Source: Pseudomonadota bacterium
GTDB taxonomy: Bacteria > Pseudomonadota > Gammaproteobacteria > Burkholderiales > JACQAP01
Reading direction: 5' to 3'
DNA length: 64,000 nucleotides
Assembly: GCA_038040175.1 (NCBI GenBank)
Contig: JBBPIT010000006.1
Location: 19,991 to 83,990, forward strand
Both the position numbers and the translations under genes were made by a program. The notes below the pieces were generated by a model. The model was not told the DNA's origin, ran no database searches, and saw only the letters and a program-made list of their open reading frames with translations. Shown one piece after another: positions 33,885 to 59,888 of this stretch (the stretch's first letter is position 1; each line of letters opens with the position of its first letter).

Positions 33885-34100
33885 TTCAACACGAAGGACA
33901 CGAAGGAAAAACGAAGGCTCACGAAGGAAAGCAAAAACATGCGAACGGGAGAAGAAATAGGATGCACGATTCCTGGGAGCTGTCGCCCGGGCTCGCATCG
34001 AATGCTTTTCTCTTTGAACCCTACGTCCTTTTGGATTCAGGGGATTCCGGTTTGAAGTCCTTCGTGTTCCATTGCTCTTCCTTCGTGTCCTTCGTGTTTA
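33885..34100. repeat. tandem-repeat-armed hairpin element A (unit CACGAAGGA)
   Basis: AACACGAAGGACACGAAGGA (33888-33907) is the perfect reverse complement of 34079-34098. The arms are 9-nt tandem units, with a ~120-nt unique centre. Confidence 0.85.
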
Positions 34101-34182
34101 CGCGGTTCGCTTGAGACTTCAATGACGACCGTCACAGCACAGTTCCTGCCCAGCGCCAATTTGCAACAAGGAGACTAAAGTC

Positions 34183-35370
34183 ATGGCAAACGATCCGATC
34201 GTCATTGTTTCCGCTGCGCGCACGCCGCTGGGGGCGCTGCAGGGTGAACTGAAGGACTTCGCGGCTCCGCAGCTCGGCGCGGCGGCGATCCGCGCTGCGA
34301 TCGAACGCGCCGGCGTCAAGCCCGACCAGGTGCAGGAAGTGATCATGGGCTGCGTGCTGCCGGCCGGACAGGGGCAGGCGCCGGCTCGCCAGGCGTCGCT
34401 CGGCGCCGGTCTGCCGCTGTCGGCAGGTTGCACCACCGTGAACAAGATGTGCGGTTCGGGGATGAAAGCGGCGATGCTCGCGCACGATCTGCTCATTGCG
34501 GGCACCAACGACGTCATGGTCGCGGGCGGGATGGAGAGCATGAGCAACGCGCCCTATCTGTTGCCGAAGGCACGCTCGGGCTACCGCATGGGGCATCAGC
34601 AGGTGCTGGACCACATGTTCTTGGACGGACTGGAAGATGCCTACGACAAAGGCAGGCTGATGGGCAGCTTTGCCGAAGACTGCGCGGGGAAGTACCAGTT
34701 CGGCCGGGAAGATCAGGACAAATTCGCCGTTGCGTCGCTCGAGCGCGCGCAGAAGGCCAACAAGGACGGTTCGTTCGCATGGGAGACCATGCCGATCGCG
34801 ATCAAGGCCGGCAAGGATGAACGCTTCGTCGAGCATGACGAAGCGCCGTTCAAAGCCAACTTCGACAGGATTCCGCTGCTCAAACCCGCGTTCAGGAAGG
34901 ACGGCACGGTGACTGCGGCGAACTCGAGTTCTATTTCAGATGGTGCCGCGGCGCTGGTGATGATGCGACGCTCGACCGCCGACAGGCTCGGCCTCAAGCC
35001 GCTCGCAACCATTGCCGGTCATTCGACGCACGCCCAGGAACCGGGCTGGTTCACCACGGCGCCGGTCGGCGCGATCAAAAAACTGTTCGACAAGACCGGC
35101 TGGAGCGCGGACCAGGTCGACCTGTACGAGATCAATGAAGCGTTCGCGGTGGTGACGATGGCGGCAATGAAAGAGCACAAGCTGCCGCACGAAAAGGTGA
35201 ACGTCCATGGCGGCGCCTGCGCCCTCGGACATCCAATCGGCGCCTCCGGCGCGCGGATTCTCGTTACGCTGATCGGCGCACTGCGCAAGCACGGCGGCAA
35301 GCGCGGCGTCGCGTCGCTTTGCATCGGCGGCGGCGAAGCCACCGCGATGGCCATCGAGCTCGTCGCTTGA
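34183..35370 (+). CDS. acetyl-CoA C-acetyltransferase (thiolase)
   Basis: VIVSAARTPLG ... NKMCGSGMKA ... GGACALGHPIGASGAR ... CIGGGEA thiolase signatures. Confidence 0.92.
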   Translation: MANDPIVIVSAARTPLGALQGELKDFAAPQLGAAAIRAAIERAGVKPDQVQEVIMGCVLPAGQGQAPARQASLGAGLPLSAGCTTVNKMCGSGMKAAMLAHDLLIAGTNDVMVAGGMESMSNAPYLLPKARSGYRMGHQQVLDHMFLDGLEDAYDKGRLMGSFAEDCAGKYQFGREDQDKFAVASLERAQKANKDGSFAWETMPIAIKAGKDERFVEHDEAPFKANFDRIPLLKPAFRKDGTVTAANSSSISDGAAALVMMRRSTADRLGLKPLATIAGHSTHAQEPGWFTTAPVGAIKKLFDKTGWSADQVDLYEINEAFAVVTMAAMKEHKLPHEKVNVHGGACALGHPIGASGARILVTLIGALRKHGGKRGVASLCIGGGEATAMAIELVA

Positions 35371-35389
35371 CGCGACTAGATTAAACGCG

Positions 35390-35594
35390 TTCAACACGAA
35401 GGATCACGAAGGAAAGACTAAAAGCACACGAACGAAAAGCGATAAAGGGAGAAAACTGTCGACCACGAGATAGAGAGTTGGATCGGACCGACGAATGAGT
35501 GAGCGGACAAGTACCGGTACTCCTTTCTCAATTTGTTTGTTCTTGGTCTTCCTTCGTGACCCTTCGCTTTTCCTTAGTGATCCTTCGTGTTGAA
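35390..35594. repeat. tandem-repeat-armed hairpin element B (unit CACGAAGGA)
   Basis: TTCAACACGAAGGATCAC at 35390-35407 is the perfect reverse complement of 35577-35594. Confidence 0.85.
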
Positions 35595-35622
35595 AGAGGT
35601 TTGGTTTTAAGGGGAAACAAAC

Positions 35623-36531
35623 ATGACGAACAAGAAAATAGGATTTATCGGCGTCGGCATGATGGGCCACGGCATGGCGAAGAACCTGATCGACAAGGGT
35701 TTCCCGACCACCATCCTCAGCCACAAGAATCGTGCACCGGTCGAAGACCTGGTAAAGCGCGGCGCAAAGGAAGCGAAGGACGTTGCCGGCCTGGTCGCCG
35801 CCAGCGACATCGTGTTCATCTGCGTGACCGGCTCGCCGCAGGTGGAAGACCTGGTTTATCGCAAGGGCGGAATTCTGGAGTCGGCGCGCTCGGGGCAGAT
35901 CGTGGTGGATACCTCGACCAGCCAGCCTGGTTCGACGCTGAAGATCGCCGGCGAATTCCAGTCCAGGGGCGTGCGCTTCGTCGATGCGCCGCTGACCCGC
36001 ACGCCGGTAGAGGCGGAGCAGGGACGGCTCAATACCATGGTCGGCGCCGACGCGGCCACGTTCAAGGAGATCGAGCCGGCGCTTAAGGCATTCTGCGAGA
36101 ACATTTTCCATATCGGCGACGTTGGTGCGGGTCACAAGATCAAGCTGATCAATAACTGCGCCGCGATCGGACAGATGGCGCTGATCGCGGAAGCGCTGAC
36201 TGCGTGCGCGAAACTCGGGGTGGATCCGAAAAAGTACTTCCAGCTGGTTTCAACCGGCGCAGCAAACTCGGGCATCTTTCAGATGCTGGCAGGCAAGGCG
36301 ATCGAAGGCGATTTCACCGGGATGAAGTTCGGGCTCGCCAATGCACTCAAGGACGTGCGTTACTACAACCAGATGGCGATGGAGTTCGGTGTGGCGGGTT
36401 CGATGGCAGCGGCGACGCTGCAGACGTTGACGCAGGCGGTGAATCTCGGCTTCGGCGGTGCCGAGCATCTGGTCGCGTCGCTGGTTCCGGCAATCGCCAA
36501 GCTCAACAACACGCCGTTCCCGCCTGAATAA
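35623..36531 (+). CDS. NAD(P)-dependent oxidoreductase, 3-hydroxyisobutyrate dehydrogenase family
   Basis: The KIGFIGVGMMGHGMAKNL Rossmann motif, with beta-hydroxyacid dehydrogenase-like sequence. Confidence 0.85.
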   Translation: MTNKKIGFIGVGMMGHGMAKNLIDKGFPTTILSHKNRAPVEDLVKRGAKEAKDVAGLVAASDIVFICVTGSPQVEDLVYRKGGILESARSGQIVVDTSTSQPGSTLKIAGEFQSRGVRFVDAPLTRTPVEAEQGRLNTMVGADAATFKEIEPALKAFCENIFHIGDVGAGHKIKLINNCAAIGQMALIAEALTACAKLGVDPKKYFQLVSTGAANSGIFQMLAGKAIEGDFTGMKFGLANALKDVRYYNQMAMEFGVAGSMAAATLQTLTQAVNLGFGGAEHLVASLVPAIAKLNNTPFPPE

Positions 36532-36539
36532 AGACATGT

Positions 36540-36723
36540 TCACCACGAAGGCACGAAGACACGAAGAAAAGCAAAACGGACAATGGGGCAAGGTCTGAGC
36601 CATCGCGACGACGCCGGCAATGGCGCGTTCGGCGGAGAAGTAGGCGCACGCCGATTCGGCGTTCGCGGGCCTGTTCGACGCATTTCTTGCTCGCCTTCGG
36701 TTTTCTTCGTGCCTTCGTGGTGA
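36540..36723. repeat. tandem-repeat-armed hairpin element C (unit CACGAAG[GA])
   Basis: TCACCACGAAGGCACGAAGA at 36540-36559 is the perfect reverse complement of 36704-36723. Confidence 0.85.
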
Positions 36724-36765
36724 GATTGAAGGTTTTTCGCCAACCGGCAAACCAAAGGGCAAGTG

Positions 36766-37368
36766 ATGGCCAATCCGATCCAGTTTTACTTCGACTTCGC
36801 TTCGCCCTACGGGTACATGGCGGCGACGCAGATTTCACGCCTTGCGGCGAAGCACGGCCGCAGCGTCGAGTGGAAGCCGTTCCTGCTCGGTGTCGTGTTC
36901 AAGGTGACCGGCGGCGTGCCGCTGCCCAACGCGCCATTGAAGGGTGAATACAGCAGGCGCGACATGGAGCGCTCCGCGCGGCTGTACGGTATCCCGTTCA
37001 AGGTGCCGAGCAAGTTCCCGATCGCCAGCCAGGCGCCGGCGCGCACCGTCTACTGGCTGGAGCCGCAGGGATCCGCCAGGCAGGAAGAGGCTGTGCTCGC
37101 GCTGTATCGTGCCTACATGGTGGACGATCGGGACATCTCCAGTCCGGAGGTCACTGCCGATGTGGCCGCATCGATCGGCCTGGACAGGCAGAAAGTGCTC
37201 GACGTTATCGCCGACCCGGTGATGAAAGAGCGGCTCAAGACCGAGACCGAGACCGCAATCCAGCGCGGCGTGTGCGGCTCGCCTTACATAATCGTGGACG
37301 CTGAGCCGTTCTGGGGCGCCGACCGTGTGGAGCACGTGGACAAGTGGCTTGCGACCGGGGGCTGGTAA
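36766..37368 (+). CDS. 2-hydroxychromene-2-carboxylate isomerase family (DsbA-like) protein
   Basis: IQFYFDFASPYGYMA ... GSPYIIVDAEPFWGADR are typical of the HCCA isomerase/DsbA family. Confidence 0.82.
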   Translation: MANPIQFYFDFASPYGYMAATQISRLAAKHGRSVEWKPFLLGVVFKVTGGVPLPNAPLKGEYSRRDMERSARLYGIPFKVPSKFPIASQAPARTVYWLEPQGSARQEEAVLALYRAYMVDDRDISSPEVTADVAASIGLDRQKVLDVIADPVMKERLKTETETAIQRGVCGSPYIIVDAEPFWGADRVEHVDKWLATGGW

Positions 37369-37398
37369 CCGGCGTACTGGCATCCGGATCAAAACATC

Positions 37399-39006
37399 AT
37401 GACGGCGATTCGCAGCAAGCTCAATCCGCGCGCACCCGAATTCAAAGCCAGTCAGGAGGCGATGGCGGCGCTGGTGGCCGACCTGAGCGCCAAGGTCGGG
37501 CTCGTCAGCCAGGGTGGCGGCGAGGCGGCGCGGGAGAAACACATCAGCCGCGGCAAGCTGCTGCCGCGCGAGCGCATCCGGCGGTTGCTCGATGTCGGCT
37601 CGCCGTTTCTGGAGCTGTCGCAACTTGCCGCGTGGAACATGTACGACGGCGCGGTGCCGGCCGCCGGCATCATTACCGGCGTGGGGCGGGTAGCGGGGCG
37701 GGAGTGCGTAATCGTTGCCAACGATGCCACGGTGAAGGGCGGCACCTATTTTCCTATGACGGTGAAGAAGCACGTGCGGGCGCAGGAGATTGCGCAGCAG
37801 AACCGGTTGCCGTGCATCTACCTTGTCGATTCCGGCGGTGCTAACCTGTCCACCTGGGACGAAGTGTTCCCGGACCGCGATCATTTCGGGCGGATCTTCT
37901 ACAACCAGGCGAACATGTCGGCGGCCGGGATTCCGCAGATCGCGGTGGTGATGGGTTCATGCACCGCAGGCGGTGCCTACGTGCCGGCGATGGCGGACGA
38001 AGCGATCATCGTCAGGAACCAGGGCACCATCTTTCTGGCCGGGCCGCCGCTGGTGAAGGCCGCGACCGGCGAAGTGGTGAGCGCGGAAGAGCTGGGCGGC
38101 GCGGACGTGCATGCCCGCACTTCCGGCGTCGCCGACCACTACGCGCTCAACGACCCGCATGCACTGGAACTGGCGCGCCGCATCGTTTCGCACCTCAACC
38201 TGAAAAAGGAGATCGCGCTCGAGATCCGCGAGCCGCGCGAGCCGCTTTACGAGGTGGCCGAACTGCACGGCGTGGTGCCCACCGATGCGCGCAAACCGTT
38301 CGACGTGCGCGAGGTGATTGCCCGGATCGTGGACGGCAGCGAACTCGACGAATTCAAGCCGCTTTACGGCACCACACTGCTGTGCGGCTTCGCGCACATC
38401 TTCGGCTACCCGGTCGGAATCGTTGCCAACAACGGCATCCTGTTTTCCGAATCCGCAATGAAGGGGGCACATTTCATCGAGCTGTGCGCGCAGCGGCGCA
38501 TCCCGCTGGTGTTCCTGCAGAACATCACCGGCTTCATGGTAGGCAAAAAATACGAGGCCGGCGGCATCGCCAAGGACGGCGCCAAATTGGTGACTGCCGT
38601 GTCCTGTGCGCGCGTGCCGAAATTCACCGTGATCATCGGCGGCAGCTTCGGCGCCGGCAACTACGGCATGTGTGGCCGCGCCTATAGCCCGCGTTTCCTG
38701 TGGATGTGGCCGAATGCGCGCATCTCGGTGATGGGCGGCGAGCAGGCGGCAGCCGTGCTGGCGCAGGTCAAGCGCGATGGCCTGGAGAAGTCCGGCAAGT
38801 CGTGGAGCCGGGAAGACGAGGAAGCGTTCAAGGCGCCGATCCGCGCGCAGTACGAGACCCAGGGGCATCCGTATTACGCCAGCGCGCGGCTGTGGGACGA
38901 CGGCGTGATCGATCCCGCCGACACCCGCATGGTACTGGGATTGGGAATCTCCGCGGCGCTCAACGCGCCGATCGAGGAAACGCGCTTCGGCGTGTTCCGG
39001 ATGTAG
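37399..39006 (+). CDS. mccB: methylcrotonyl-CoA carboxylase carboxyltransferase (beta) subunit
   Basis: 535 aa, with the carboxyl-transferase N and C domains ([37 protein letters not shown]). Confidence 0.92.
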
Positions 39007-39009
39007 ACC

Positions 39010-40188
39010 ATGGACGCGCGTTCCTCTCACAGCGGCATGGAGTCGATCTATCTCACCGAGGAGCATGTCGCCCTGCGCGATCAAGTCGCGCGGTTTCTGG
39101 CGAAAGAAGTCGAGCCGCATGGGGAAGCATGGGAAGAACAGGGCCATGTGCCGCGCGAGGTTCTGCGCAAGATGGGCGAGCTGGGATTTTTCGGCATTAC
39201 CTATCCGGCCGAGTATGGTGGCGCGGAGGCCGACGCGCTGACCGCGCTGGTGTTCGCCGAAGCGGTTTCGCGGACGACCTTCGGCGGTTTCGCAGCGACA
39301 GTCCTGGTACACACCGACATGGCCTCGCCGCACCTGGTCAACGCAGGCTCAAAGGCGCAGCTCGACAAATACCTGCCCGCGGTCATCCGTGGAGAGCGCA
39401 TCACCGCGGTCGCGGTCACCGAGCCGGACGCCGGATCCGACGTTGCAGCAATCCGCACGCGCGCCCGCAGGGACGGCAACGGCTGGGTGCTGAACGGCGC
39501 CAAGATGTTTATCACCAACGGAGTGCACGCGGATCTTTACTTCGTCGCGGCGCGCACCGACCCCGAAGCCAAGGGGTCAAGCGGCATCTCGATGTTCATC
39601 GTCGAGAAAGGCCTGCCGGGGTTCCGCGTCGGCCGCGCACTGAAGAAGACCGGCTGGCTGTGCTCGGACACGGCGGAACTGGTGTTCGAGGACTGCCGCG
39701 TGCCGGCGGAGAACCTGCTCGGGGAAGAGAATGCCGGCTTCTACGCGGTGATGAAGAATTTCCAGACCGAGCGTATCGCCGCGGCCGCCATTGCGGTCGG
39801 CCACGCGCTGACCGCGTTGCGTCTGACCGTCGAGTACGTTAAGAGCCGCAAGGCCTTCGGCGGGGTGCTGTTCGACAAGCAGGTGATCCGCCAGCGCCTG
39901 GCGATGCTGGAGGCCAAAACGCACGCGGCGCGCCAGTTTCTCTACCACTGCGGATGGCTGGCGGCGCAGCGGCGCGACTGCGTGCGCGAAGTGTCGATGC
40001 TGAAAGCCCTGACCGGCGAACTGGTGAACGAAGTGCTTTACACCTGCCAGCAGTTCCATGGTGGCATGGGATACATGCGCGAGAGCGCCATCGAGCGCCT
40101 GGCGCGGGATTCGCGCGTGCTCTCCATCGGCGGCGGCGCGACCGAAGTGATGCTTGAGGAAGTGGCGAAGCGTTTCGCGCCGGACTGA
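39010..40188 (+). CDS. acyl-CoA dehydrogenase family protein
   Basis: ACAD N, middle and C domains (TEPDAGSDVAAIRT, QFHGGMGYM). Confidence 0.88.
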   Translation: MDARSSHSGMESIYLTEEHVALRDQVARFLAKEVEPHGEAWEEQGHVPREVLRKMGELGFFGITYPAEYGGAEADALTALVFAEAVSRTTFGGFAATVLVHTDMASPHLVNAGSKAQLDKYLPAVIRGERITAVAVTEPDAGSDVAAIRTRARRDGNGWVLNGAKMFITNGVHADLYFVAARTDPEAKGSSGISMFIVEKGLPGFRVGRALKKTGWLCSDTAELVFEDCRVPAENLLGEENAGFYAVMKNFQTERIAAAAIAVGHALTALRLTVEYVKSRKAFGGVLFDKQVIRQRLAMLEAKTHAARQFLYHCGWLAAQRRDCVREVSMLKALTGELVNEVLYTCQQFHGGMGYMRESAIERLARDSRVLSIGGGATEVMLEEVAKRFAPD

Positions 40189-40214
40189 GACTGGAAAAGA
40201 AGAACGCAACGACG

Positions 40215-41006
40215 ATGAAATACGACACCCTGGAAACCGACACCACGCAGGGGCTGGCCGTGGTGCGGATGAACCGTCCGGAAGTGCACAACGCCTTCGA
40301 CGACCACCTGATCGCGGAGCTGACCACGGAACTGCGCCGGCTCGACCAGGCGCCGGAAGTGCGCGTCGTCGTGCTCGCCGCCAACGGCAAGAGCTTCTCC
40401 GCGGGTGCGGACCTCAACTGGATGCAGCGCATGGCGAAATATTCCGAGGCCGAGAACCTGCGCGACGCGGTGGCGATGGCCGGGCTGATGCGCATGCTGC
40501 ACGGAATGCACAAACCGACGATTGCGCGGGTGCAGGGCGCGGCGTTTGGCGGCGGCGTCGGGCTGGTCGCGTGCTGCGACATTGCGGTGGCTGCCGCTGA
40601 AGCGTCGTTCTCATTGTCTGAAGTGCGGCTGGGGCTGATCCCCTCGGTGATCAGTCCCTACGTCATCGCCGCAATCGGCGAGCGCGAGGCGCGGCGTTAT
40701 TTCCTTACGGCCGAGCGCTTCGGCGCCGAGGAGGCCAGGCGCATCGGCCTGGTGCACGAAGTCACCACCGGCGACCGGCTTGATGAGGCGGTGAAAAATT
40801 TCGCCGACCAGCTGCTCAAGGGCGGGCCGAACGCGCTGGCAGCGGCAAAGAAGCTGATTGCAGACGTTGCCCGCCATCCGCTGGACGATGCGCTGATGGA
40901 AGAAACCGCGTGGCGCATCGCTTCGATCCGCGTCAGTGCGGAAGGCCGCGAAGGTTTGAGCGCTTTCCTGGAGAAGCACCCGCCTGCCTGGACGAAGAAA
41001 TCTTGA
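40215..41006 (+). CDS. liuC: enoyl-CoA hydratase / methylglutaconyl-CoA hydratase
   Basis: Crotonase fold (FSAGADLNWM ... GAAFGGGVGLVACCDIAVA), positioned between the mcc subunit genes. Confidence 0.88.
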   Translation: MKYDTLETDTTQGLAVVRMNRPEVHNAFDDHLIAELTTELRRLDQAPEVRVVVLAANGKSFSAGADLNWMQRMAKYSEAENLRDAVAMAGLMRMLHGMHKPTIARVQGAAFGGGVGLVACCDIAVAAAEASFSLSEVRLGLIPSVISPYVIAAIGEREARRYFLTAERFGAEEARRIGLVHEVTTGDRLDEAVKNFADQLLKGGPNALAAAKKLIADVARHPLDDALMEETAWRIASIRVSAEGREGLSAFLEKHPPAWTKKS

Positions 41007-41016
41007 ACTGAATTTC

Positions 41017-44140: not shown

Positions 44141-44244
44141 CGCTCAGCTCCTGTCACGCCTGGGCGAGCGACATTCCGGTGATCGCAAAACGCTTTCCGG
44201 AGTTCTATAGCGGCCTTAAGAAGACTCCAGGCTGACCCAGGCTG

Positions 44245-46929: not shown

Positions 46930-46931
46930 CG

Positions 46932-48692: not shown

Positions 48693-48739
48693 GAGGATTA
48701 TTGGTGATCAACCGTCAAAGCAGAAGCAAGAACGTGAAT

Positions 48740-48929
48740 TCTCACCACGAAGACACGAAGACACGAAGAAACACGAAGAAGAGCGAAAAAATTATACGTG
48801 TGTAAAGCTCCAATTGGCGGATGTTTCAACAAACTCGAAGTTGGCGGGAGAGGATCACGAACAGTTACCGCGCTTCTATCCCCAATTAGTTTAAGGATTC
48901 CTGTTTTTCTTCGTGTCTTCGTGGTGAGA
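48740..48929. repeat. tandem-repeat-armed hairpin element D (unit CACGAAGA)
   Basis: TCTCACCACGAAGACACGAAGA at 48740-48761 is the perfect reverse complement of 48908-48929. Confidence 0.85.
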
Positions 48930-48969
48930 TTTGCTTTTCTATAGTTCGCAGCCTGACTGAGGCAAGGGA

Positions 48970-50226: not shown

Positions 50227-50231
50227 GATTC

Positions 50232-51293: not shown

Positions 51294-51300
51294 TTCTGTT

Positions 51301-53025
51301 CTAGCGGTTCATTCGGTTCAGGAGTTGCTCCAGCTTGTCGCGATCGTCGCTCTTCAGCATTTTCTGGGTGAGCACCATGACTTGCTGCAGGTCGGACTTC
51401 AATACCTGCTGCTTGACCGACAGCAAGTACGCCGGATGCATCGAGAACTGCCGCAATCCGAAACCCAGCAGCACCCTCGTCAGGCGCACGTCGCCGGCCA
51501 TCTCGCCGCACACTGCGACCGGCACGTCGGCGCGATTGGCGCTGCGGATAATGTGCGCCACCAGGTTCAGCACGGCCGGATGCAGCGGGTCGTAGAGGTG
51601 CGCGACCGTGTCGTCGGCACGGTCGATCGCAAGCGTGTACTGGATCAGGTCGTTGGTGCCGATCGACAGGAAATCGAGCTTGCGGGTGAAGGTGGAGAGC
51701 GACAGCGCCGCGGCGGGAATTTCGATCATGCCGCCGATCTTGATCTTCCGGTCGTAGGCGATGCCGTCGTCGTGAAGGCTCTTCTTGGCCTCGTCGATCA
51801 GGTGCAGAGTCTGGTTCAGCTCGTGCGCCGAGGACAGCATGGGAATCAGAATGCGCACCTTGCCGTAGTGCGAGGTGCGCAGGATGGCACGCAGCTGGTG
51901 ATGGAACATCTGCGGCTCGGCCAGGCACAGGCGGATCGCGCGCAGGCCCAACGCCGGATTGGGCGCGACGCGTTCGGTGTTGTCGATCTGCTTGTCCGCG
52001 CCGAGGTCGAAGGTACGGATGGTGACGGGCAGGCCGTCCATGTCCTGTACCACCTTGCGATAGGCTTCGAACTGTTCGTCCTCGGTCGGCAGGTCGCGGC
52101 GATTCAGATACAGAAACTCGGTGCGGAACAGACCGACGCCGTCGGCGCCGTTCTCCTTGGCGCCGGCAACGTCGTCCGGCAACTCGATGTTGGCGTGCAG
52201 TTCGATCGCGGTGCCGTCCCGCGTGGTGGTCTTGGTTTTTCTCAGCCTCCTGAGTTTCAGGCGTTCGAGCTCCCACTGTTCCTGGCGCAGCTTGTACTCG
52301 CCCAGCACCGTCTTGTCGGGATTGATGATGACCACGCCGTTGGTGCCGTCCACGATCAGCACTTCGTTCTCGCGGATCAGCGTGCGCGCGTGGTGCAGGG
52401 CCACCACGGAGGGGATGTTCAGGCTGCGGGCGATGATCGCGGTGTGCGACGTGACGCCGCCAAGGTCGGTGACGAAGCTGGCGAACCGGTGGCTCTTGAA
52501 CAGGATGACATCCGCCGGGGAGAGGTCGTGCGCGACCAGGATGCTGTTCTCCTCGGGTGTGCTGCGTGCCAGGACCTCGCCGGGCCGCCCCATCAGGACC
52601 TTCAGTACCCGCTCCACGACCTGGATGACATCGGTCTTGCGCTCGCGGATATAACCGTCCTCGATGCGCTCGAACTGTTCCATCAGCGCTTCCATCTGCA
52701 GCTTCAACGCCCATTCTGCGTTGCACTGCTGGGATTCGATGAGCTGTTTCGGCACCTCCGACAGGGTCGGATCGTCGAGGATCATCAGGTGCAGATTGAG
52801 AAAGGCTTCGAACTCCGCCGGCGCGCCGGCCGGAATGTGCTGGCCGAGACTGGCAAGTTCGGCGCGCGCTGTTATCAGTGCCGCGTCGAAGCGGGCCTGC
52901 TCTTCCGCGATCCGCGACTTGGAGATGTTGTAATGCGCGACCTCGAGCTGGGCGTGCGAAACCAATTGGGCATGGCCGATGGCGATGCCCCCCGATACCC
53001 CGATGCCGTGAACGGTGAAGCTCAT
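51301..53025 (-). CDS. ptsI: phosphoenolpyruvate-protein phosphotransferase (PTS enzyme I)
   Basis: GVTSHTAIIARSL is the phospho-His region. GGMIEIPAA and SIGTNDLIQY are PEP-utilising motifs. Confidence 0.92.
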   Translation of the reverse strand: MSFTVHGIGVSGGIAIGHAQLVSHAQLEVAHYNISKSRIAEEQARFDAALITARAELASLGQHIPAGAPAEFEAFLNLHLMILDDPTLSEVPKQLIESQQCNAEWALKLQMEALMEQFERIEDGYIRERKTDVIQVVERVLKVLMGRPGEVLARSTPEENSILVAHDLSPADVILFKSHRFASFVTDLGGVTSHTAIIARSLNIPSVVALHHARTLIRENEVLIVDGTNGVVIINPDKTVLGEYKLRQEQWELERLKLRRLRKTKTTTRDGTAIELHANIELPDDVAGAKENGADGVGLFRTEFLYLNRRDLPTEDEQFEAYRKVVQDMDGLPVTIRTFDLGADKQIDNTERVAPNPALGLRAIRLCLAEPQMFHHQLRAILRTSHYGKVRILIPMLSSAHELNQTLHLIDEAKKSLHDDGIAYDRKIKIGGMIEIPAAALSLSTFTRKLDFLSIGTNDLIQYTLAIDRADDTVAHLYDPLHPAVLNLVAHIIRSANRADVPVAVCGEMAGDVRLTRVLLGFGLRQFSMHPAYLLSVKQQVLKSDLQQVMVLTQKMLKSDDRDKLEQLLNRMNR

Positions 53026-53029
53026 GACT

Positions 53030-53118
53030 GTGAGGCGTGAGGAGTGAGGGATGAGGCGTGATGCAGCTCGACTCCGGTTTCGAACTGACCTCTCGCCTAT
53101 CGCCTCACGCCTTACGCG
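53030..53118. repeat. tandem-repeat-armed hairpin element E (unit GTGAGGC), short centre
   Basis: The left arm is GTGAGGCGTGAGGAGTGAGGGATGAGGCGTGATG. The right arm is CCTCTCGCCTATCGCCTCACGCCTTACGCG. The element fills the ptsH-ptsI intergenic gap. Confidence 0.8.
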
Positions 53119-53119
53119 T

Positions 53120-53389
53120 TCATTCCCCTTCCCCGAACCTGTCGCTGATTAGCCCGACCAACGCCGCCATTGCTTCGGCTTCATCCGGACCGTTGGTCTC
53201 GACCACGACGGTCGCGCCTTTGGCGGCGGCGAGCATCATCACGCCCATGATGCTCTTGGCATTGACCCGGCGGTCGTCGCGCGTCACCCATACGTCGGCG
53301 GCGAATTTGCCGGCGAGCTGAGTGAGCTTGGCGGCCGCGCGCGCGTGCAGCCCCAGCTTGTTGGCGATCTCAATTTCCCGTTGCTGCAT
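53120..53389 (-). CDS. ptsH: HPr-family phosphocarrier protein
   Basis: 89 aa. LGLHARAAAKL holds the active-site His. Confidence 0.9.
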   Translation of the reverse strand: MQQREIEIANKLGLHARAAAKLTQLAGKFAADVWVTRDDRRVNAKSIMGVMMLAAAKGATVVVETNGPDEAEAMAALVGLISDRFGEGE

Positions 53390-53786
53390 TTTTCATCTGT
53401 GCCGCGGGAATTTGCATGACGCCTTCGATGCCCCCGGAGATCGCTTTCGCGACCACGGTCCTCAGGGGCTCGTTGCGATAAGTCAGTGCGCGCACCAGCA
53501 TCGGCAGATTCACCCCCGCGACACCTTCGATCTTGCCGGGGATCAGCAACTTGCTGGCGATGTTGCAGGGCGTGGCGCCGTAAACGTCGGAAAGCACCAG
53601 CACGCCGCTGCCCTGGTCGAGGCTGCGCGCCAGTTTGATCGCCTGCGGCAGCACCAGCTGCGGATCGTCGAGCATGCTTACGCCGATCTGCATCAGGTGC
53701 GGCGGCCGGCTGCCCATCACGTGGCTGGCGCAGTGAATCAGGCTTTCACCCAGCATGCCGTGGGCAACGATCAGTATTCCAACCAT
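53370..53786 (-). CDS. PTS EIIA component, mannose/fructose family
   Basis: MVGILIVAHGMLGESL is the EIIA-Man phospho-His region. 138 aa. Confidence 0.85.
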   Translation of the reverse strand: MVGILIVAHGMLGESLIHCASHVMGSRPPHLMQIGVSMLDDPQLVLPQAIKLARSLDQGSGVLVLSDVYGATPCNIASKLLIPGKIEGVAGVNLPMLVRALTYRNEPLRTVVAKAISGGIEGVMQIPAAQMKNAATGN

Positions 53787-53850
53787 AAGTCCCTTTGATC
53801 TGCTGCGAAGAATACCGTAGAGATTCTACCTCCGGGAGCGCCCGAACTGC

Positions 53851-54025
53851 GTGAGGCGATAGGCGATAGGCGTTAGGCGAGAGGCGTTAGGCGAGGGGCC
53901 AAGAATCGGTGATTAGGTGATTCAGTAATTAGGTGATTGAAACCAGTCACTCAATCACTCAATCACTCAATCACTTAATCACCCTTCACCCTTCACCTTT
54001 CACCCTTCACCCTTCACCCTTCACC
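53851..54025. repeat. composite tandem-repeat element F (three different repeat units, nested)
   Basis: (GGCGNNA)x6 lies at 53851-53898. The inner inverted pair is (GGTGATTA)x4 at 53908-53939 against (TCACTCAA)x4 at 53947-53982. (CCCTTCA)x6 at 53982-54025 contains the gshB stop codon. Confidence 0.85.
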
Positions 54026-54957
54026 GCCTTTTCCAGCGCATCGATCATCAGCGCAGCGACATTGAAGCCGGTCTGGTCGGCGATTTCACGCATGCAGGTC
54101 GGGCTGGTGACGTTGACTTCGGTCAGGTAATCGCCGATCACGTCCAGGCCGACCAGCATCAGTCCCTGCGCCTTGAGTTCAGGGCCGACGGCCTCTGCGA
54201 TCTCCCGGTCGCGGGCAGTCAACGGCTGCGCCACGCCGGTGGCGCCGGCGGCGAGATTGCCGCGGGTTTCCCCCTGTTTCGGAATGCGCGCAAGCGAGTA
54301 TGGCACCGGCTTGCCGTCGATGACCAGGACGCGTTTGTCGCCCTTGACGATCTCGGCGATGAAGCGCTGCGCCATCACCGTGCGCCGGCCGTAATGGGTA
54401 AGGGTTTCGATCACCACCCCGATGTTGGGATCCTGACGGTGCAGGCGGAACACCGCGGTGCCGCCCATGCCGTCCAGCGGTTTGAGGATGATATCGCCGT
54501 GCTCGGCGAGAAAGTCGCGGATCAACTGCTCGACGCGCGTGACCAGCGTCGGCACCGTGAACTGCGCAAACTTGGCGATCGCCAGTTTTTCGTTATGGTC
54601 GCGCACGGCGCGCGGGCGGTTGACGACGCGCGCGCCCTGCTTTTCCGCCAGCTCCAGCAGGTAAGTGCTGTAGATGTATTCCATGTCGAATGGCGGGTCC
54701 TTGCGCATCAATACCGCATCGAAAGTCTCCAGCGGCACCGGCTTTCTGTCGCCGACGCGGTACCAGTGCTGGTCGTCGGAAGTGAGCGACAGGTCGCGCG
54801 CGTAGCCAAGTACGCGGCCGTCGCGCCAGATCAGGTCCTCCTGCTGCAGCACTGCGAGCGCATGGCCGCGGGCCGCCGCCTCGCGCATCATCGCGTAGGA
54901 AGAGTCCTTGTAGGTCTTGATGGTATCGAGCGGGTCGAGAACGAAGGCGATTTTCAT
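54007..54957 (-). CDS. gshB: glutathione synthase
   Basis: MKIAFVLDPLDTIKTYKDSSYAMMREA is a typical GshB N-terminus, followed by an ATP-grasp domain. The track ORF extends upstream to 55284. Confidence 0.9.
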   Translation of the reverse strand: MKIAFVLDPLDTIKTYKDSSYAMMREAAARGHALAVLQQEDLIWRDGRVLGYARDLSLTSDDQHWYRVGDRKPVPLETFDAVLMRKDPPFDMEYIYSTYLLELAEKQGARVVNRPRAVRDHNEKLAIAKFAQFTVPTLVTRVEQLIRDFLAEHGDIILKPLDGMGGTAVFRLHRQDPNIGVVIETLTHYGRRTVMAQRFIAEIVKGDKRVLVIDGKPVPYSLARIPKQGETRGNLAAGATGVAQPLTARDREIAEAVGPELKAQGLMLVGLDVIGDYLTEVNVTSPTCMREIADQTGFNVAALMIDALEKAVKGEG

Positions 54958-55015
54958 GTTGTTATCGCGGGAGCGCGCCGACTGCGCCGCACGCGCAAGC
55001 GTGCTGGAACCACGT

Positions 55016-56335
55016 TCAAGTATTGGCGGCCCTGGCTTGCGGAAACGGCTGCTGTTCGAGCGCGGCTTCCATGCGCTCCAGCTCCATCGCGGCGGCGAGC
55101 AAGGCCAGCCGTGCCACGACGCCGTAGGCGTAAAAGCGGTTGGGCGCACAGTCGGGATTGCCGTCGAGGTCCGGCAGCAAGCAACTGTCCTCGAAAGCGA
55201 GCGGCTCGAAACGCATGCCCGGTGCGTTGAGGTTCTGGTCGACGCCACGCTGGGTGTGCACGCGATAAAAACCGCCGACCACAAAGTGATCGATCATGTA
55301 AATGACCGGTTCGGCGACCCCGTCGTTCACGGTCTCGAAGGTGTAGACGCCTTCCTGCACCATCACGTTGGAAACCTGCAGGCCTTCCTTCACCACCGCC
55401 ATCTTGTTGCGCTGCTTGCGATTCAGCCCCTGCACTTCGGAGGCGTCCTTGACGGTCATGATCCCCATCCCATAGGTGCCGGCGTCGGCCTTGACGATCA
55501 CGAAGGGCTCGTACTGGATGCCGTACTCGCGGTATTTCACGCGCGTCTGGGTCAGGATGTGGTCCACCCAGCCCGCGAGGCATTCCTCGCCGACGCGCTC
55601 CTGGAAGTTGATCTCGCCGCAGGTGGCAAAGTAGGGATTGATCAGCCAGGGGTCGATGCCCAGCAGACCGGCGAACTCTTCGGCGACTTCCTTGTACGCG
55701 GCGAAATGGTTCGACTTCAGCCGTGTCGACCAGCCTGCGTAGAGCGGCGGCATCACCGGCTGCTCGAGGTTCTTGAGGATGTCCGGGACGCCGGCCGACA
55801 AATCGTTGTTGAGCAGAATGGTGCAGGGGTCGAAATCGGCCAGCCCCAGGCGGTTGCCGCGGCGAACCAGCGGCTCCAGCACAAGCTTCTTGCCGTCGGG
55901 CAGGTCCAGCGCGGTCGACGCGGTGATCTCCGGCAACAGTGAGCCGATCCGCACCTTCATTCCGGCGAGCTGCAGGATGTTCTGCAGTGTTGCCACGTTC
56001 TTCAGGTAATAGATGTTGCGGGTATGGTTCTCGGGGATCACCAGAAAGCCGCTTGCGTCCGGGCACACCTTCTCGATCGCGGTCATCACGGCCTGTACGC
56101 ACAGCGGCAGGAATTCCTTGTTCAGATTGTTGAATCCCCCGGGGAAAAGGTTGGTGTCCACCGGCGCCAGCTTGAAGCCGCTGTTGCGCAGATCCACCGA
56201 TGCGTAAAACGGTGCCGCATGTTCCTGCCATTGGCCGCGGAACCAATGCTCGATCCTGGGCATGCTGTCGAGAATCTGCTTCTCGAGCGAAAGAACGGGG
56301 CCGGTCTGGGCAGTAGCAAGGCGGGGAACGGTCAT
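55016..56335 (-). CDS. gshA: glutamate-cysteine ligase (proteobacterial ~440-aa type)
   Basis: The start is placed at MTVPRLATAQ (56335). FYASVDLRNSGFKLAPVDTNLFPGGFNNL is characteristic. The track ORF extends to 57163 across amtB antisense. Confidence 0.85.
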   Translation of the reverse strand: MTVPRLATAQTGPVLSLEKQILDSMPRIEHWFRGQWQEHAAPFYASVDLRNSGFKLAPVDTNLFPGGFNNLNKEFLPLCVQAVMTAIEKVCPDASGFLVIPENHTRNIYYLKNVATLQNILQLAGMKVRIGSLLPEITASTALDLPDGKKLVLEPLVRRGNRLGLADFDPCTILLNNDLSAGVPDILKNLEQPVMPPLYAGWSTRLKSNHFAAYKEVAEEFAGLLGIDPWLINPYFATCGEINFQERVGEECLAGWVDHILTQTRVKYREYGIQYEPFVIVKADAGTYGMGIMTVKDASEVQGLNRKQRNKMAVVKEGLQVSNVMVQEGVYTFETVNDGVAEPVIYMIDHFVVGGFYRVHTQRGVDQNLNAPGMRFEPLAFEDSCLLPDLDGNPDCAPNRFYAYGVVARLALLAAAMELERMEAALEQQPFPQARAANT

Positions 56336-56482
56336 GTACGTCAACAAGTTGGGTTCGGCCGGATTGTAGCAGACGCGCTCTGCCGGCGAGCCGTTCAGTT
56401 TGCTGCCCGGCGCCCCTGTCCGCAACCTGACGCCCAATCGACGGCGCGAGCCATACGGCCGCCATTGGGCGCCTCGCACGGC

Positions 56483-56509
56483 AAAAAAAACGGGCGCCCG
56501 AAGGCGCCC
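56483..56509 (-). terminator. rho-independent terminator of amtB
   Basis: The minus strand reads GGGCGCC-ttcg-GGCGCCC followed by GTTTTTTTT, 33 nt after the amtB stop. Confidence 0.8.
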
Positions 56510-56541
56510 GATGAATTGGTAAGCGAACTTACCGGAGGAGA

Positions 56542-57996
56542 CTACATGTGATAAGCCGTTTCGCCGTGCTCGGTGATGTCCAGGCCTTCGCGCTCCTTGT
56601 CTTCCGGTACGCGCAGACCGATGACCAGATCGACGATCTTGTAGGCGATTGCAGCCACGACGCCGGACCAGATCAGCGTTGTACCCACGCCCCAGGCCTG
56701 CGAGACGAACTGGGTGGCGATCGAGTAGTCCGGTGTAACGGCGTTGGCCACGTAATCGTAGACCCCGGTGCCGCCGAGCTTTGGCGAACAGAACACCGCC
56801 GTACCCAAAGCGCCGATGATGCCGCCGATGCAGTGCACGCCGAACACATCGAGCGAGTCGTCGTAGCCGAACATCTTTTTCAGGCCGCTCACCCCCCACA
56901 GGCAGATGATGCCGGCGATGATGCCCAGCACGATGGCCCCCATCGGGCCGACGAAACCGCAGGCCGGGGTGATGGCGACCAGGCCGGCGACCGCGCCGGA
57001 GGCGATGCCCAGCATGCTCGGCTTGCCCTTCACCAGCCATTCGACGAACATCCAGGCCAGCGCCGCAGCGGCGGTGGCGAGCAGAGTGTTCACGAACACC
57101 ATCGCGGCGAAACCGGTGGACTCGAGGTTGGAGCCGACGTTGAAGCCGAACCAGCCCACCCACAGCAGCGAGGCGCCGACCATGGTCATGGTCGTGCTGT
57201 GCGGCGGCATGGCTTCCTTGCCGTAACCGATGCGCTTGCCGATCATCAAGCAGCCCACCAAGCCGGCGATACCGGCGTTGATGTGCACCACCGTGCCGCC
57301 GGCGAAGTCCAGCGCGCCTTTCTGCCAGATGAACCCCGCGGTGGCGGTGGCGGTGGCGGCGGCCTCAGCCGACGAATAAGCGTCGGGTCCGGCCCAGTAC
57401 CACACCATGTGCGCGATCGGCAGGTAGGAGAAGGTGAACCACAGCGCCATGAACAGCAGCACCGCGGAGAACTTCACGCGCTCGGCAAAGGCGCCGAGGA
57501 TCAGCGCCGGGGTGATCGCCGCGAATGTGAGCTGGAAGACGATGTAAATGTACTCGGGGATTACCACGCCCTTGCTGAAAGTGGCGACGTTCGAATCCGG
57601 CGTCACCCCGCTCAGGAAGGCGCGACCCAGCCCCCCGAAGAAGGCGTTGCCCTCGGTGAAGGCGATGCTATAACCGTAAATCGCCCACAGCACCGCCAGC
57701 AAGGAGAAAGTGGCGAACACCTGCATGAGCAGCGACAACATGTTCTTGGCGCGGACCATGCCGCCGTAGAACAATGCCAGGCCCGGGATCGTCATCAGAA
57801 TTACCAGCACGGTGGCGGTGATCATCCACGCCGTGTCGCCTTTGTTCGGCACCGGGGCGGCCGCTGGAGCCGCCGCGGGAGCCGTAGCAGCAGCAGCCGT
57901 GGGCGCGTCTGCCGCAGGCGCATCCTCAGCAAAGCTCGGGGCGGACAAACCCAGCACTCCGCACAGAGCAAACAGCATCAGAATCTTTCTAATCAT
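56542..57996 (-). CDS. amtB: ammonium transporter
   Basis: The start is placed at MIRKILMLFALCGVLGLSAPSFA (signal peptide). Amt family TM sequence reads DFAGGTVVHINAG. Confidence 0.92.
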   Translation of the reverse strand: MIRKILMLFALCGVLGLSAPSFAEDAPAADAPTAAAATAPAAAPAAAPVPNKGDTAWMITATVLVILMTIPGLALFYGGMVRAKNMLSLLMQVFATFSLLAVLWAIYGYSIAFTEGNAFFGGLGRAFLSGVTPDSNVATFSKGVVIPEYIYIVFQLTFAAITPALILGAFAERVKFSAVLLFMALWFTFSYLPIAHMVWYWAGPDAYSSAEAAATATATAGFIWQKGALDFAGGTVVHINAGIAGLVGCLMIGKRIGYGKEAMPPHSTTMTMVGASLLWVGWFGFNVGSNLESTGFAAMVFVNTLLATAAAALAWMFVEWLVKGKPSMLGIASGAVAGLVAITPACGFVGPMGAIVLGIIAGIICLWGVSGLKKMFGYDDSLDVFGVHCIGGIIGALGTAVFCSPKLGGTGVYDYVANAVTPDYSIATQFVSQAWGVGTTLIWSGVVAAIAYKIVDLVIGLRVPEDKEREGLDITEHGETAYHM

Positions 57997-58006
57997 GACG
58001 TTCTCC

Positions 58007-58396
<390 letters not shown>

Positions 58397-58410
58397 TTAT
58401 GATGCGTTTG

Positions 58411-59190
58411 TTAAAAAGTCTTGCCGACCGACACGATCACGGCGGAATCACCGATGAAGACGTTTTCGGTCCCCTTCGCGTACGTGTAGTTCGCTTCCTC
58501 GGCATCGGTGTCCTTATAAGCCAGGCCGAAGTTGAAGCCGCTCCACATGTAGTTCACGCCGATTTTGTAGTCCGTGTAGTCGAGGTCAACGCCGGGAGCG
58601 GTACCTTCGACGGTCTGTTGACCGACGTGCGCAGAGACCGAGAAGGCATCATTAATCGGATACGTGGCGTTGAGTTCGACGTACATGGACCCGTCGCTGC
58701 CGTCGCTGAAGATTGCCGGGAACGTCGTCTGGTTTCCGCCGAAAAAATCCGACACTGCAAAGGAAAGTTTCGCACTTATCCATTTCCAGGAACCGCCGGC
58801 GTAGATTTCAGTCGTGTCGTACTTTTCGCCGGGTGCAGGCTCGCCACCGGGGTAGTAATAGAGAAGCGCGCCGACGTTGACGCCGAAATCGCCGAAGGTC
58901 TTGGCCCAGCCGCCGTAGAAGTCCCACTCCATGTTTGCGGGGCCGTACAGGCTCTGGCTCACGTTGGAACCCCAGGTGCCAAGGTACAGGCCGCTCGAAT
59001 GTGTATAGTCGAAGCTTCCCTGGATCGCCGGCTCCTCCAGCGTCTGGCTCAATCCGCGGAAAGAGTAGTCGGATACGAAACTGAGATTGCCGGTAATAGT
59101 GTGGGGAGAAGCGGCCTGCTCGGCCAATACGGCCCCGGGCAGGGCAAAAGCGCTAATCACAGCAACGGCAAGAAGATTTTTTTTTAGCAA
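58411..59190 (-). CDS. TorF-family putative outer-membrane porin
   Basis: A signal peptide is followed by TGNLSFVSDYSFRGLSQTLEEPAIQGSFDY and a C-terminal F. It sits upstream of glnK-amtB, as is often seen. The start is TTG per the track. Confidence 0.8.
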   Translation of the reverse strand: MLKKNLLAVAVISAFALPGAVLAEQAASPHTITGNLSFVSDYSFRGLSQTLEEPAIQGSFDYTHSSGLYLGTWGSNVSQSLYGPANMEWDFYGGWAKTFGDFGVNVGALLYYYPGGEPAPGEKYDTTEIYAGGSWKWISAKLSFAVSDFFGGNQTTFPAIFSDGSDGSMYVELNATYPINDAFSVSAHVGQQTVEGTAPGVDLDYTDYKIGVNYMWSGFNFGLAYKDTDAEEANYTYAKGTENVFIGDSAVIVSVGKTF

Positions 59191-59259
59191 GGCGATATTC
59201 CTTTAGTGATGACTGCAACAAAGACGGCAACGAACCCAAAAACAGCCGCTAGAGTCGTC

Positions 59260-59275
59260 AGCATTTACCATGCCA
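59260..59275 (-). promoter_or_regulatory. sigma54 (-24/-12) promoter candidate for porin-glnK-amtB
   Basis: The minus strand reads TGGCAT-GGTAA-ATGCT with GG and GC at the correct spacing, ~70 nt upstream of the porin start. Confidence 0.55.
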
Positions 59276-59350
59276 CACAAAAATCTCATTCAAATGAATG
59301 TGTTAATCATATTCCGGGTGAGGGCGCGCGCAGCGATGCACTAAAGAAAT

Positions 59351-59384
59351 GCACCGTTGGAGTGCCCCTGCACCTTGCCGGTGC
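59351..59384. promoter_or_regulatory. two NtrC-type enhancer sites
   Basis: GCACC-GTTGG-AGTGC lies at 59351-59365. The perfect GCACC-TTGCC-GGTGC lies at 59370-59384. Both are 75-125 nt upstream of the sigma54 motif. Confidence 0.5.
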
Positions 59385-59432
59385 GGAAGGGCGCAGGGGT
59401 CGCTTTGCTACACTTCGCGAAGGAGGCTGCCC

Positions 59433-59678
59433 GTGGATACCAAGCTCTTGGATGAATTGAATCGCAGGGTGAACAATTTGATCGCCGCCACCCCGGCGAA
59501 AGACATCGAGAAGAATCTGCGCGCGCTGCTGTCGAGCGCTTTCTCGCGGCTCGATCTGGTGACGCGCGAAGAATTCGATGTGCAACAGGAGGTGCTCCGC
59601 CATACTCGTGAGAAGCTGCAACAGATGGAGGCGCGGGTTGCGGAGCTGGAAGCAAAGCTGAAAAGGGGTGAGGCGTGA
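59433..59678 (+). CDS. ubiK: UbiK/YqiC-family accessory factor (coiled-coil)
   Basis: The GTG at 59433 is preceded by GAAGGAGG. The sequence reads DTKLLDELNRRVNNLIAA...LVTREEFDVQQEVL...LEAKL. The last codons lie inside repeat element G. Confidence 0.78.
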   Translation: MDTKLLDELNRRVNNLIAATPAKDIEKNLRALLSSAFSRLDLVTREEFDVQQEVLRHTREKLQQMEARVAELEAKLKRGEA

Positions 59679-59888
59679 GGCGAGAGGCGAGAGGCGCGAA
59701 CCGATGAATCCCGCGAATCCCCAGCCGCGACGCGCTCGCTTGAGGCGCCCAGTCGCCTGTTCTCGTGTCGCGGCTCTTTATACCCGACCCTCGATACCCC
59801 TCAAGGCGGTATTGAAAAGAATCCTGAATCGGCGATTCTCTAATTTCGCCTTCCTTACGCCTCTCGTCTCTCGCCTTACGCCTCACCC
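59667..59888. repeat. tandem-repeat-armed hairpin element G (unit G[TA]GAGGC)
   Basis: The left arm is GGTGAGGCGTGAGGCGAGAGGCGAGAGGCG. The right arm at 59847-59888 is its imperfect reverse complement. The centre is ~150 nt. Confidence 0.82.

Follow-up and report, generated by a model that had tools for sequence, protein, structure and literature searches.

Tandem-heptamer hairpins between operon genes of a soil Burkholderiales bacterium: probable gene-less members of a nuclease-carrying element family

Why do the gaps between genes in several operons of one bacterium hold hairpins whose arms are themselves built from short tandem repeats? The question is raised by a 64,000-nucleotide stretch of DNA (the whole of which we call the window) from an uncultured soil Burkholderiales, positions 19,991 to 83,990 of contig JBBPIT010000006.1 in assembly GCA_038040175.1, with a G+C content of 62.9%. 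A first-pass annotation had described these hairpins, three of them within a liu gene cluster, and had offered two readings: stem-loops acting in polycistronic RNA, or mobile non-autonomous hairpins with slipping arms. The second reading proved the best fit – one element (B) is absent from relatives, another (C) has a paralogue and has lost a repeat unit, and similar arms surround a nuclease minigene in other organisms. We observed common termini, association with a nuclease gene, presence/absence between relatives, a full-length paralogue and spread across phyla. We consider it probable that four of the seven hairpins (A–D) are gene-less, non-autonomous members of a nuclease-carrying hairpin-element family spread over many phyla, resembling MITEs (miniature transposable elements with inverted repeats at their ends) and REPINs.

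The hairpins themselves are well defined. An inverted-repeat scan of the whole window placed A–G among its 11 longest pairs (I1–I4, I6, I8, I9 and I11; A is I1, B is I2, G is I3, D is I4 and I9, C is I6 and I8, and E is I11), interleaved with three unrelated weaker pairs. An independent scorer recovered solely G, B, D, A and C across the 64 kb at a score of at least 18 within 280 nt, and no inverted repeat reached this score in 30 first-order Markov simulations of the window. All seven fold far beyond shuffled sequence (z −4.3 to −10.9), and Tandem Repeats Finder reported periods of 7–10 nt at each, with units CACGAAGGA, CACGAAGA, GTGAGGC, GGTGATTA/TCACTCAA and TCACCCT. These analyses bear out the positions and the tandem-repeat arms of the seven elements in the first-pass annotation. 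An eighth, 'degenerate' element that it had placed at 62497-62602 appears in the scan only as I12, paired with 62241-62266, and was discarded because its folding z-scores were only −1.2 and −1.6.

Elements A–D, to which no strand is assigned, share a repeat type. Element A (33885..34100), in the gap between an ivd-like gene and a thiolase gene, has CACGAAGGA units ending in TTCAAC, a non-coding centre of ~170 nt and a perfect 21-nt core (33888-33908/34078-34098; minimum free energy (MFE) −96.7, z −7.5). Element B (35390..35594) lies in the thiolase/dehydrogenase gap, with arms at 35390-35415 and 35569-35594 (TTCAACACGAAGGATCACGAAGGAAA), which make up its perfect core. Element C (36540..36723), between the dehydrogenase and a DsbA-like isomerase, ends in TCACC...GGTGA and carries three CACGAAG units in its 5′ arm (36544-36567) and two in its 3′ arm (36704-36719), with a perfect core of 20 nt (36540-36559/36704-36723). 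Element D (48740..48929), between two minus-strand genes for a ProA-like aldehyde-dehydrogenase-family protein and lipoamide dehydrogenase, ends in TCTCACC...GGTGAGA; the unit CACGAAGA occurs four times in one of its arms and twice in the other, and the perfect core measures 22 nt (48740-48761/48908-48929). The centres of the window copies are non-coding and 120–170 nt long. All four elements fit a C-R-C-R-R-A-G array consensus (at least two units per arm, spacers of 1–3 nt, purine-rich array first). The ends of A and B are a variant, TTCAAC...GTTGAA, degenerate at the 3′ end of A. A subterminal motif, (A/G)AAAGCAA(A/G)A, follows the arrays, with its complement before the 3′ array (33908-33935, 35415-35440 and 36567-36580); the same extension is present in relatives L001, L004, L125, L127, L128 and L138 and absent from the elements of other phyla, and is a lineage-specific addition to the inverted termini.

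The first-pass annotation had held that architecture rather than sequence is conserved among the hairpins. For A–D this is wrong: CACGAAG heptamers are kept far outside this genome. We searched a one-genome-per-species collection (596 Gb) for three CACGAAG units with spacers of 1–3 nt and found at least 118 loci, against an estimated ~2 expected by chance; viral contigs contained at least 120 loci with the same pattern. The matches listed come, among others, from Acidobacteriota, Planctomycetota, Verrucomicrobiota, Chloroflexota (including the complete Herpetosiphon aurantiacus genome), Heliobacteria, Desulfobacterota, Nitrospirota, and Alpha-, Beta- and Gammaproteobacteria, and among them heptamer hairpins occur in more than 10 phyla. 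About two-thirds of the matches listed are hairpins, with a CACGAAG array first, a CTTCGTG array second and a loop of 8–220 nt. Their outer end is CCACGAAG...CTTCGTGG, mostly inside TTCAC...GTGAA as in C and D, and the outer boundaries of C and D are identical to those of loci L204, L211, L214 and L084. The usual closure is TTCAC-C...G-GTGAA around arrays of 2–4 heptamers with spacers of 1–3 nt. Over all C-R-C-R-R-A-G hairpins, loop sizes fall into three groups, at 8–50, 50–150 and ~376 nt.

Some of these matches are organised in other ways. At L097:5226-5833 and L083:30-460 (Desulfonema magnum), seven or more entire hairpins are repeated in tandem with a period of ~85–100 nt. Each L083 stem contains G.T pairs (CACGAAG vs CTTTGTG), precedes a T-run and so resembles a terminator.

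We clustered all open reading frames (ORFs) of the 118 matched loci and found that a single small family overlaps the arrays – GxxExxY (TIGR04256/PF13366). The remaining clusters were generic families, with no common neighbouring transposase among the 118 loci. We examined 20 distinct GxxExxY sites, 12 from the CACGAAG group and eight with divergent genes (34–55% identity) from cultured organisms. Units of one repertoire (CACGAAG, CACAGAG, CGCAGAG, CACGGAG and CGCGAAG), tandem or single, abut the gene at 17 of the 20 sites, and at 13 of these the gene lies between inverted arms of two or more units each (10 of 12 in the CACGAAG group and three of eight among the divergent genes). CACGAAG-bracketed genes were found at L008, L084, L204 (Lacimicrobium alkaliphilum), the L205-L210 set (Desantisbacteria), L211 (Bipolaricaulota), L212, L213, L214/L217, L215 and L216. 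The layout of these cassettes is compact: (T)TCAC, three CACGAAG units, a start codon 0–12 nt further on, a 372-nt ORF, a stop codon, and, 0–5 nt later, three CTTCGTG units and GTGA(A). Complete hairpins flank the gene on either side at L029, an array abuts its start at L122, and L209 is an internally deleted copy that retains an arm. The divergent genes have the same unit repertoire as the liu loci of relatives of the window: the arms are CACAGAG/CGCAGAG/CACGGAG in Bacteroides finegoldii, CACAGAG in Bernardetia and CGCGAAG in Sphingomonas parapaucimobilis YK209 (between fabD and fabG), a lone CACGGAG unit lies 5′ of the Gemmatirosa gene with a complete CGCAGAG hairpin directly downstream of that gene, and Treponema has a single-unit CACGGAT inverted repeat. 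The cassettes are nearly always co-directional with both neighbouring genes and occupy operon positions like those in the window (fabD–GxxExxY–fabG, and after radA, dcd or ade).

Arms also alter annotated protein ends, because ORFs run into the arrays: at L205:1466-1495 the host dcd ORF extends into the 5′ array, where a unit altered from CACGAAG to CACTAAG supplies its TAA stop codon, and at L225 the annotated GxxExxY ORF continues through the 3′ array. At L213:911-1462 a GxxExxY cassette is nested in a second, outer CACGAAG array pair, which could reflect insertion into an existing hairpin loop or duplication of the arms.

GxxExxY is a protein of 123 amino acids (372-nt gene) that matches the PD-(D/E)XK superfamily and has no assigned function. 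The family comprises 22,321 clusters at 50% identity, and copies at least 80% identical occur in unrelated phyla. A sequence search found no solved relatives. An AlphaFold2 model built on a deeper alignment reached a pLDDT (predicted local distance difference test) score of 96.5, and the solved structures that it most resembles are Cas4 SSO0001 and lambda exonuclease; a model from a shallow alignment (pLDDT 39) was unusable. Residues D67 and E77 show no variation and K79, Q91 and Y95 almost none, a pattern that fits the D..ExK plus QxxxY signature of the Cas4/lambda-exonuclease-type nuclease clade. Within the window, positions 13914-14063 (minus strand, in a 1205-amino-acid ORF at 11493-15110) gave weak tblastn matches to GxxExxY proteins (38% over 50 amino acids, E ~0.006–0.02); rather than an element, this is probably a PD-(D/E)XK domain within a large protein.

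The conservation of the heptamer could have another source: the arms might act at the DNA level, as clustered sites to which a nucleoid or regulatory protein of the host binds. At L204 and several other cassettes the spacers between heptamers are often non-complementary, and therefore the heptamer itself seems to be recognised. We know of no host protein with this heptamer specificity. Further points against this reading are that the unit spacing is irregular (8–10 bp), that units differ within one genome, and that the elements accompany a minigene and are present in some close relatives but missing from others. The closest published case is Geobacter metallireducens, in which paired tandem repeats of classes 1–3 were listed in a supplement and read as putative IHF/HU sites (Aklujkar et al. 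2009, PMC2700814). These sites are like ours in having 3–5 tandem units of 7–9 nt on opposite strands at variable distance, mostly intergenic, with several unit classes per genome; 21 are paired opposite-strand sites with three tandem TCTCCGTS[Y] each. Compared from the listed units, this class 2 unit is the reverse complement of CACGGAGA, which occurs in the window's relatives (L002) and beside GxxExxY genes (L222 and L223). The Geobacter paper differs in making no link to hairpins, mobility, other phyla or GxxExxY, and it gives no test of the IHF/HU reading. On balance, we judge host binding-site arrays very unlikely.

We compared orthologous liu loci, found by exact-protein look-up and a metagenome scan and numbered with the prefix L. 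Relatives show the same architecture in gaps of ~200 nt, partly in other gaps than in the window, with related units (CACAGAG, CGCAGAG, CACGGAG, CACCAAG and CACGAAG). In L124, intergenic DNA can be aligned to the window and third codon positions are 82–86% identical. L124 keeps C, with a 92.7% identical centre and three units per arm, relative to which the window C lacks one 8-nt unit in its 3′ arm. Element B is missing in the close relatives L124 and L147, and the corresponding gap measures 55 nt. Consistent with whole-element copying, L124 has a second, full-length C-type copy in its aceK/thiolase gap that is 79% identical to the window C over arms and centre. L131 retains an orthologous B, the arms of which carry uncompensated substitutions. 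At the C position of L125, the arms differ from those of C only by a G-to-C substitution repeated in all units of one arm and by the complementary substitution in all units of the other (CACCAAG/CTTGGTG). This element reflects either an ancient divergence or an independent insertion, since its centre and flanks cannot be aligned to C and the downstream gene is only 70% identical.

Unit loss and the L125 substitutions bring in a further alternative – that the hairpins arose in place. Slippage would expand a purine-rich repeat, template switching (quasi-palindrome correction) would copy it to the other arm, and units would be alike by convergence. Three and two units in C versus three and three in its L124 orthologue agree with this, and a change in every L125 unit together with its complement fits concerted homogenisation. 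In-place origin fails on the identical 27–30-nt termini in unrelated phyla, on the full-length paralogue in L124 and on the tight bracketing of one protein family. As an origin of the elements we regard it as most improbable; slippage and correction between the arms more plausibly describe how copies change once they have inserted.

Two of these loci are also mosaic. Between L131:1-1189 and window 35340-37366, B and its flanks are ~90% identical and the adjacent dehydrogenase gene is 56% identical at third positions; between L125:348-2089 and the same part of the window, third positions of the dehydrogenase gene show 91% identity and the DsbA-like gene past the element only 70%. Elements at such boundaries could mark recombination breakpoints at hairpins or chimeric assemblies. 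In addition, a second small palindrome, TACCCTCGCGAAGCGTGGAGTACCC, lies inside heptamer arms at L002:15149-15407, L002:16189-16395 and L136:3150-3190, and a palindrome CCTGTCTGCGTCCGAAGGACAGG within the heptamer arm at L211:1440-1475, which suggests that another small hairpin repeat targets the arms.

The placement of the elements within operons raises the first of the two earlier readings, that they serve the host as RNA. The mRNA stems would be RNase III sites, 3′-end stabilisers or translational insulators that set the expression of neighbouring genes. All seven elements indeed lie in co-directional gaps, as the first-pass annotation had said; this placement alone carries p ~0.09, because 32 of the 45 window gaps are already co-directional. 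The elements fill their gaps, starting 0–41 nt past the upstream stop codon and ending 5–83 nt ahead of the next start. In six of the seven it is the transcribed strand that folds more stably, with G.U pairs giving F a margin of 24 kcal/mol, and the same is true of 20 of 27 gene-less hairpins from co-directional contexts at other loci (binomial p 0.019). The asymmetry is absent from gene-carrying elements (9 of 16) and is hence only suggestive of an RNA role; strand-composition bias could also yield it. The C centre is more conserved than third codon positions (92.7% vs 82–86%), which hints at constraint. Several observations are difficult to reconcile with an RNA role: close relatives have the same operon without the elements and with gaps of 20–63 nt, the mismatches in the L131 B arms are uncompensated, the centres are unrelated, and identical heptamers across phyla would not be expected from pairing selection alone. 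Nor are the stems intrinsic terminators: none in the window is followed by a U-tract (the downstream sequences are TTTACGCGG, TTGAAAGAGG, GAGATTGAAGG and GAGATTTGC). We therefore think it unlikely that the hairpins are primarily host-serving RNA elements; an RNA role could be a secondary, co-opted function of a mobile element. Pairing of the arms at the RNA level, harmless to the host, is likely.

We return to the reading of A–D as gene-less members of the nuclease-carrying family. In the proposed scheme, the complete form would have the 372-nt GxxExxY gene in its centre, its start codon abutting the 5′ array and its stop codon the 3′ array, and in the window copies a non-coding centre would replace the gene. 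A nuclease encoded elsewhere in the genome would recognise the arrays, which may be extruded as a hairpin or cruciform, and mobilise gene-less copies in trans. Close relatives would gain or lose copies, other gaps would receive entire copies, unit numbers would shift by slippage, and copies would decay. They would be tolerated in operons because the arrays pair in polycistronic RNA as one long stem that hides the insert. A wider proposal, which we advance tentatively and hold to be somewhat doubtful, is that bacteria and viruses contain unnamed mobile minigene cassettes bounded by inverted heptamer arrays, with GxxExxY as the founding cargo that moves itself and the more numerous gene-less copies into co-transcribed gaps. 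Four-helix-bundle genes of the type found in 23S rRNA intervening sequences (IVSs), and other small ORFs, would use the same boundary with other units. In Acidobacteria, a gene for such a four-helix-bundle protein (TIGR02436, the 23S rRNA IVS protein family) is bracketed by inverted GTACCGA arrays, a single insertion site seen in four genomes. Single-protein and alignment queries found no GxxExxY in viral contigs.

A number of observations weigh against these proposals. CACGAAG arms in viral contigs bracket other small ORFs, such as one for a DUF6527 protein; together with the TIGR02436 case, this implies that the boundary design is not tied to one cargo, and GxxExxY may itself be cargo rather than engine. 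Among the eight divergent GxxExxY genes, three have direct repeats (Fusobacteria and Prevotella) or no repeats (Persicobacter). No GxxExxY gene or coding remnant was found in the 64-kb window or its elements by hmmsearch of ORFs or by tblastn with 277 family members, so the window copies would be gene-less derivatives, and none was found in ~1.1 Mb of related liu-region contigs. All-against-all BLAST of the A–G centres returned no mutual similarity, which is unusual for MITEs and led us to reject the stretch that the first-pass annotation had seen as common to the centres of A and C. We found no target-site duplication in 49 flank pairs or at one filled/empty pair, and no clean insertion junction could be defined from these flank pairs, from L001 (dehydrogenase protein 94% identical, intergenic DNA too diverged for junction alignment) or from the one good filled/empty pair, window B versus L124, in which the junction is ambiguous. 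The possible constraint on the C centre and the units of E–G, which are linked to no gene, count on the same side.

How do these hairpins compare with known systems? The first-pass annotation was correct that they are not REP/BIME, ERIC, Correia or CRISPR sequences. CRISPRs have spaced direct repeats of 24–48 nt, versus contiguous units of 7–10 nt with an inverted partner array here. The termini are TTCACCACGAAG or TTCAACACGAAG and the arms tandem units, with no single palindrome headed by GTAG or CGTC as in repetitive extragenic palindromic (REP) sequences and REPINs, and all elements lie between protein-coding genes, which sets aside IVS-type insertions. CsrA-type GGA sites, Shine-Dalgarno mimicry and Rho sites were also set aside, many units having no GGA and the arms being paired. 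At Rfam gathering thresholds the window was empty and 17 loci of other phyla gave just one tRNA; a permissive search (E ≤ 10) over 33800-36800 returned only noise. Like MITEs (Correia/NEMIS, ERIC, Nezha and Chunjie), the elements are small, non-coding and intergenic, often in operons, with inverted termini and strain-variable presence. MITEs differ in sharing internal sequence and in having target-site duplications and a parent with a DDE transposase, whereas here the centres are unrelated (the L124 paralogue of C, at 79% identity, notwithstanding) and the only linked gene encodes a PD-(D/E)XK protein. Foldback (FB) and Galileo (PMC3573991) elements of Drosophila have inverted repeats made of short tandem units, with variable unit numbers, centres that are variable or absent and some coding copies. 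They are eukaryotic, with kilobase arms and a P-element-type DDE transposase, so the likeness is architectural and implies no homology.

The 23S rRNA IVSs also place an inverted-repeat stem around a short loop or a gene of ~120 amino acids within a transcribed unit without disabling it. They are defined by their rRNA helix position and RNase III excision, unlike elements between protein-coding genes, and to our knowledge tandem-repeat arms are not part of their description. Their sporadic distribution has been attributed to horizontal transfer (bioRxiv 10.1101/2024.02.27.582315). REPINs are non-autonomous, and a RAYT encoded by a single-copy gene presumably mobilises them in trans (Bertels & Rainey 2011, PMC3116915); they resemble our elements in that a spacer of lower conservation separates two short conserved inverted sequences in an intergenic hairpin of ~100–200 nt. 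They differ in that each REP is a single imperfect palindrome, of 20–40 nt headed by the tetranucleotide GTAG or CGTC (PMC3733652), and in that the transposase is an HUH Y1 enzyme encoded outside the hairpin, compared with a PD-(D/E)XK protein encoded within it. Heptamer direct repeats, the cyanobacterial STRR sequences and the TAACTGA repeats of Beggiatoaceae (PMC4679880), are likewise intergenic tandem units common to distant phyla, with suspected horizontal spread and no mechanism; their arrays are direct, usually lie immediately upstream of start codons, and have neither a complementary partner array nor an associated gene. We found no account of the present hairpin family or its GxxExxY link in the literature, in which its neighbours are the Geobacter supplement, the TAACTGA repeats and the REPINs.

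If the link to GxxExxY is true, it would give a first functional handle on GxxExxY/PF13366 (more than 22,000 clusters at 50% identity) and would explain a type of intergenic repeat, in many phyla, that has been seen before but never explained. The family would also add a kind of selfish DNA that persists inside unbroken operons, and so bear on the tolerance of operons to insertions; under the wider proposal above, its movement would depend on a transposition system with a small PD-(D/E)XK nuclease as the enzyme. Were the stems processed at the RNA level, they would insulate neighbouring cistrons from each other naturally. Genome annotation should recognise the hairpins, because they inflate gaps and extend or truncate annotated ORFs; in two relatives they also meet mosaic boundaries and may be recombination junctions.

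The gene context given in the first-pass annotation agrees with Pfam. The liu order is acyl-CoA dehydrogenase (ivd-like), A, thiolase, B, a 3-hydroxyisobutyrate-dehydrogenase-like gene, C, DsbA-like isomerase and then methylcrotonyl-CoA carboxylase (MCCase) genes; the best matches of the dehydrogenase gene between B and C are metagenome-assembled genomes of uncultured Burkholderiales/Betaproteobacteria. Pfam likewise places D between the aldehyde-dehydrogenase-family (ProA-like) and lipoamide dehydrogenase genes, and G between BMFP-domain and ComM-like genes. The minus-strand order around the remaining two elements is gshB, F, EIIA-Man, HPr, E and enzyme I.

Elements E–G fall outside the C-R-C-R-R-A-G consensus, with units GTGAGGC, GGTGATTA and CCCTTCA, and probably belong to the same family with other repeat units. 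Element G (59666..59888, no strand assigned), in the gap between the BMFP-domain gene and the ComM/YifB-like Mg-chelatase gene, is built from GTGAGGC/GAGAGGC heptamers; its arms (59666-59696/59858-59888) are 94% complementary (MFE −118, z −10.9), and the upstream gene's stop codon lies inside the first repeat. Element E (53030..53118, no strand assigned) is a short form in the gap between the minus-strand genes ptsH (HPr) and ptsI, with GTGAGGC-type heptamers in arms at 53030-53061 and 53089-53117 and a loop of ~30 nt. Element F (53849..54025, minus strand), in the gshB/EIIA-Man gap, is a nested hairpin. Its outer arms pair AGGCGNT heptamers (53849-53899) with TCACCCT heptamers (53979-54025, overlapping the gshB stop codon) and its inner arms pair GGTGATTA (53908-53938) with TCACTCAA (53947-53982). 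The minus, transcribed strand folds at −92.2 kcal/mol versus −68.1 for the other, and the long sense-strand stem forms only via the G.U pairs. The right arm of E (53089-53110) is complementary to the left arm of F (53849-53870) across 738 nt, so that the two arms bracket ptsH and EIIA-Man as if these were the 'centre' of a larger element. Nested hairpins as in F also occur in Herpetosiphon (L069:2167-2571 and L067:4415-4820), in intergenic DNA dense with tandem 7–8-mers (CACGAAG, CGCGAAG, CGCAGAG, AGGGATG and GGCTATG).

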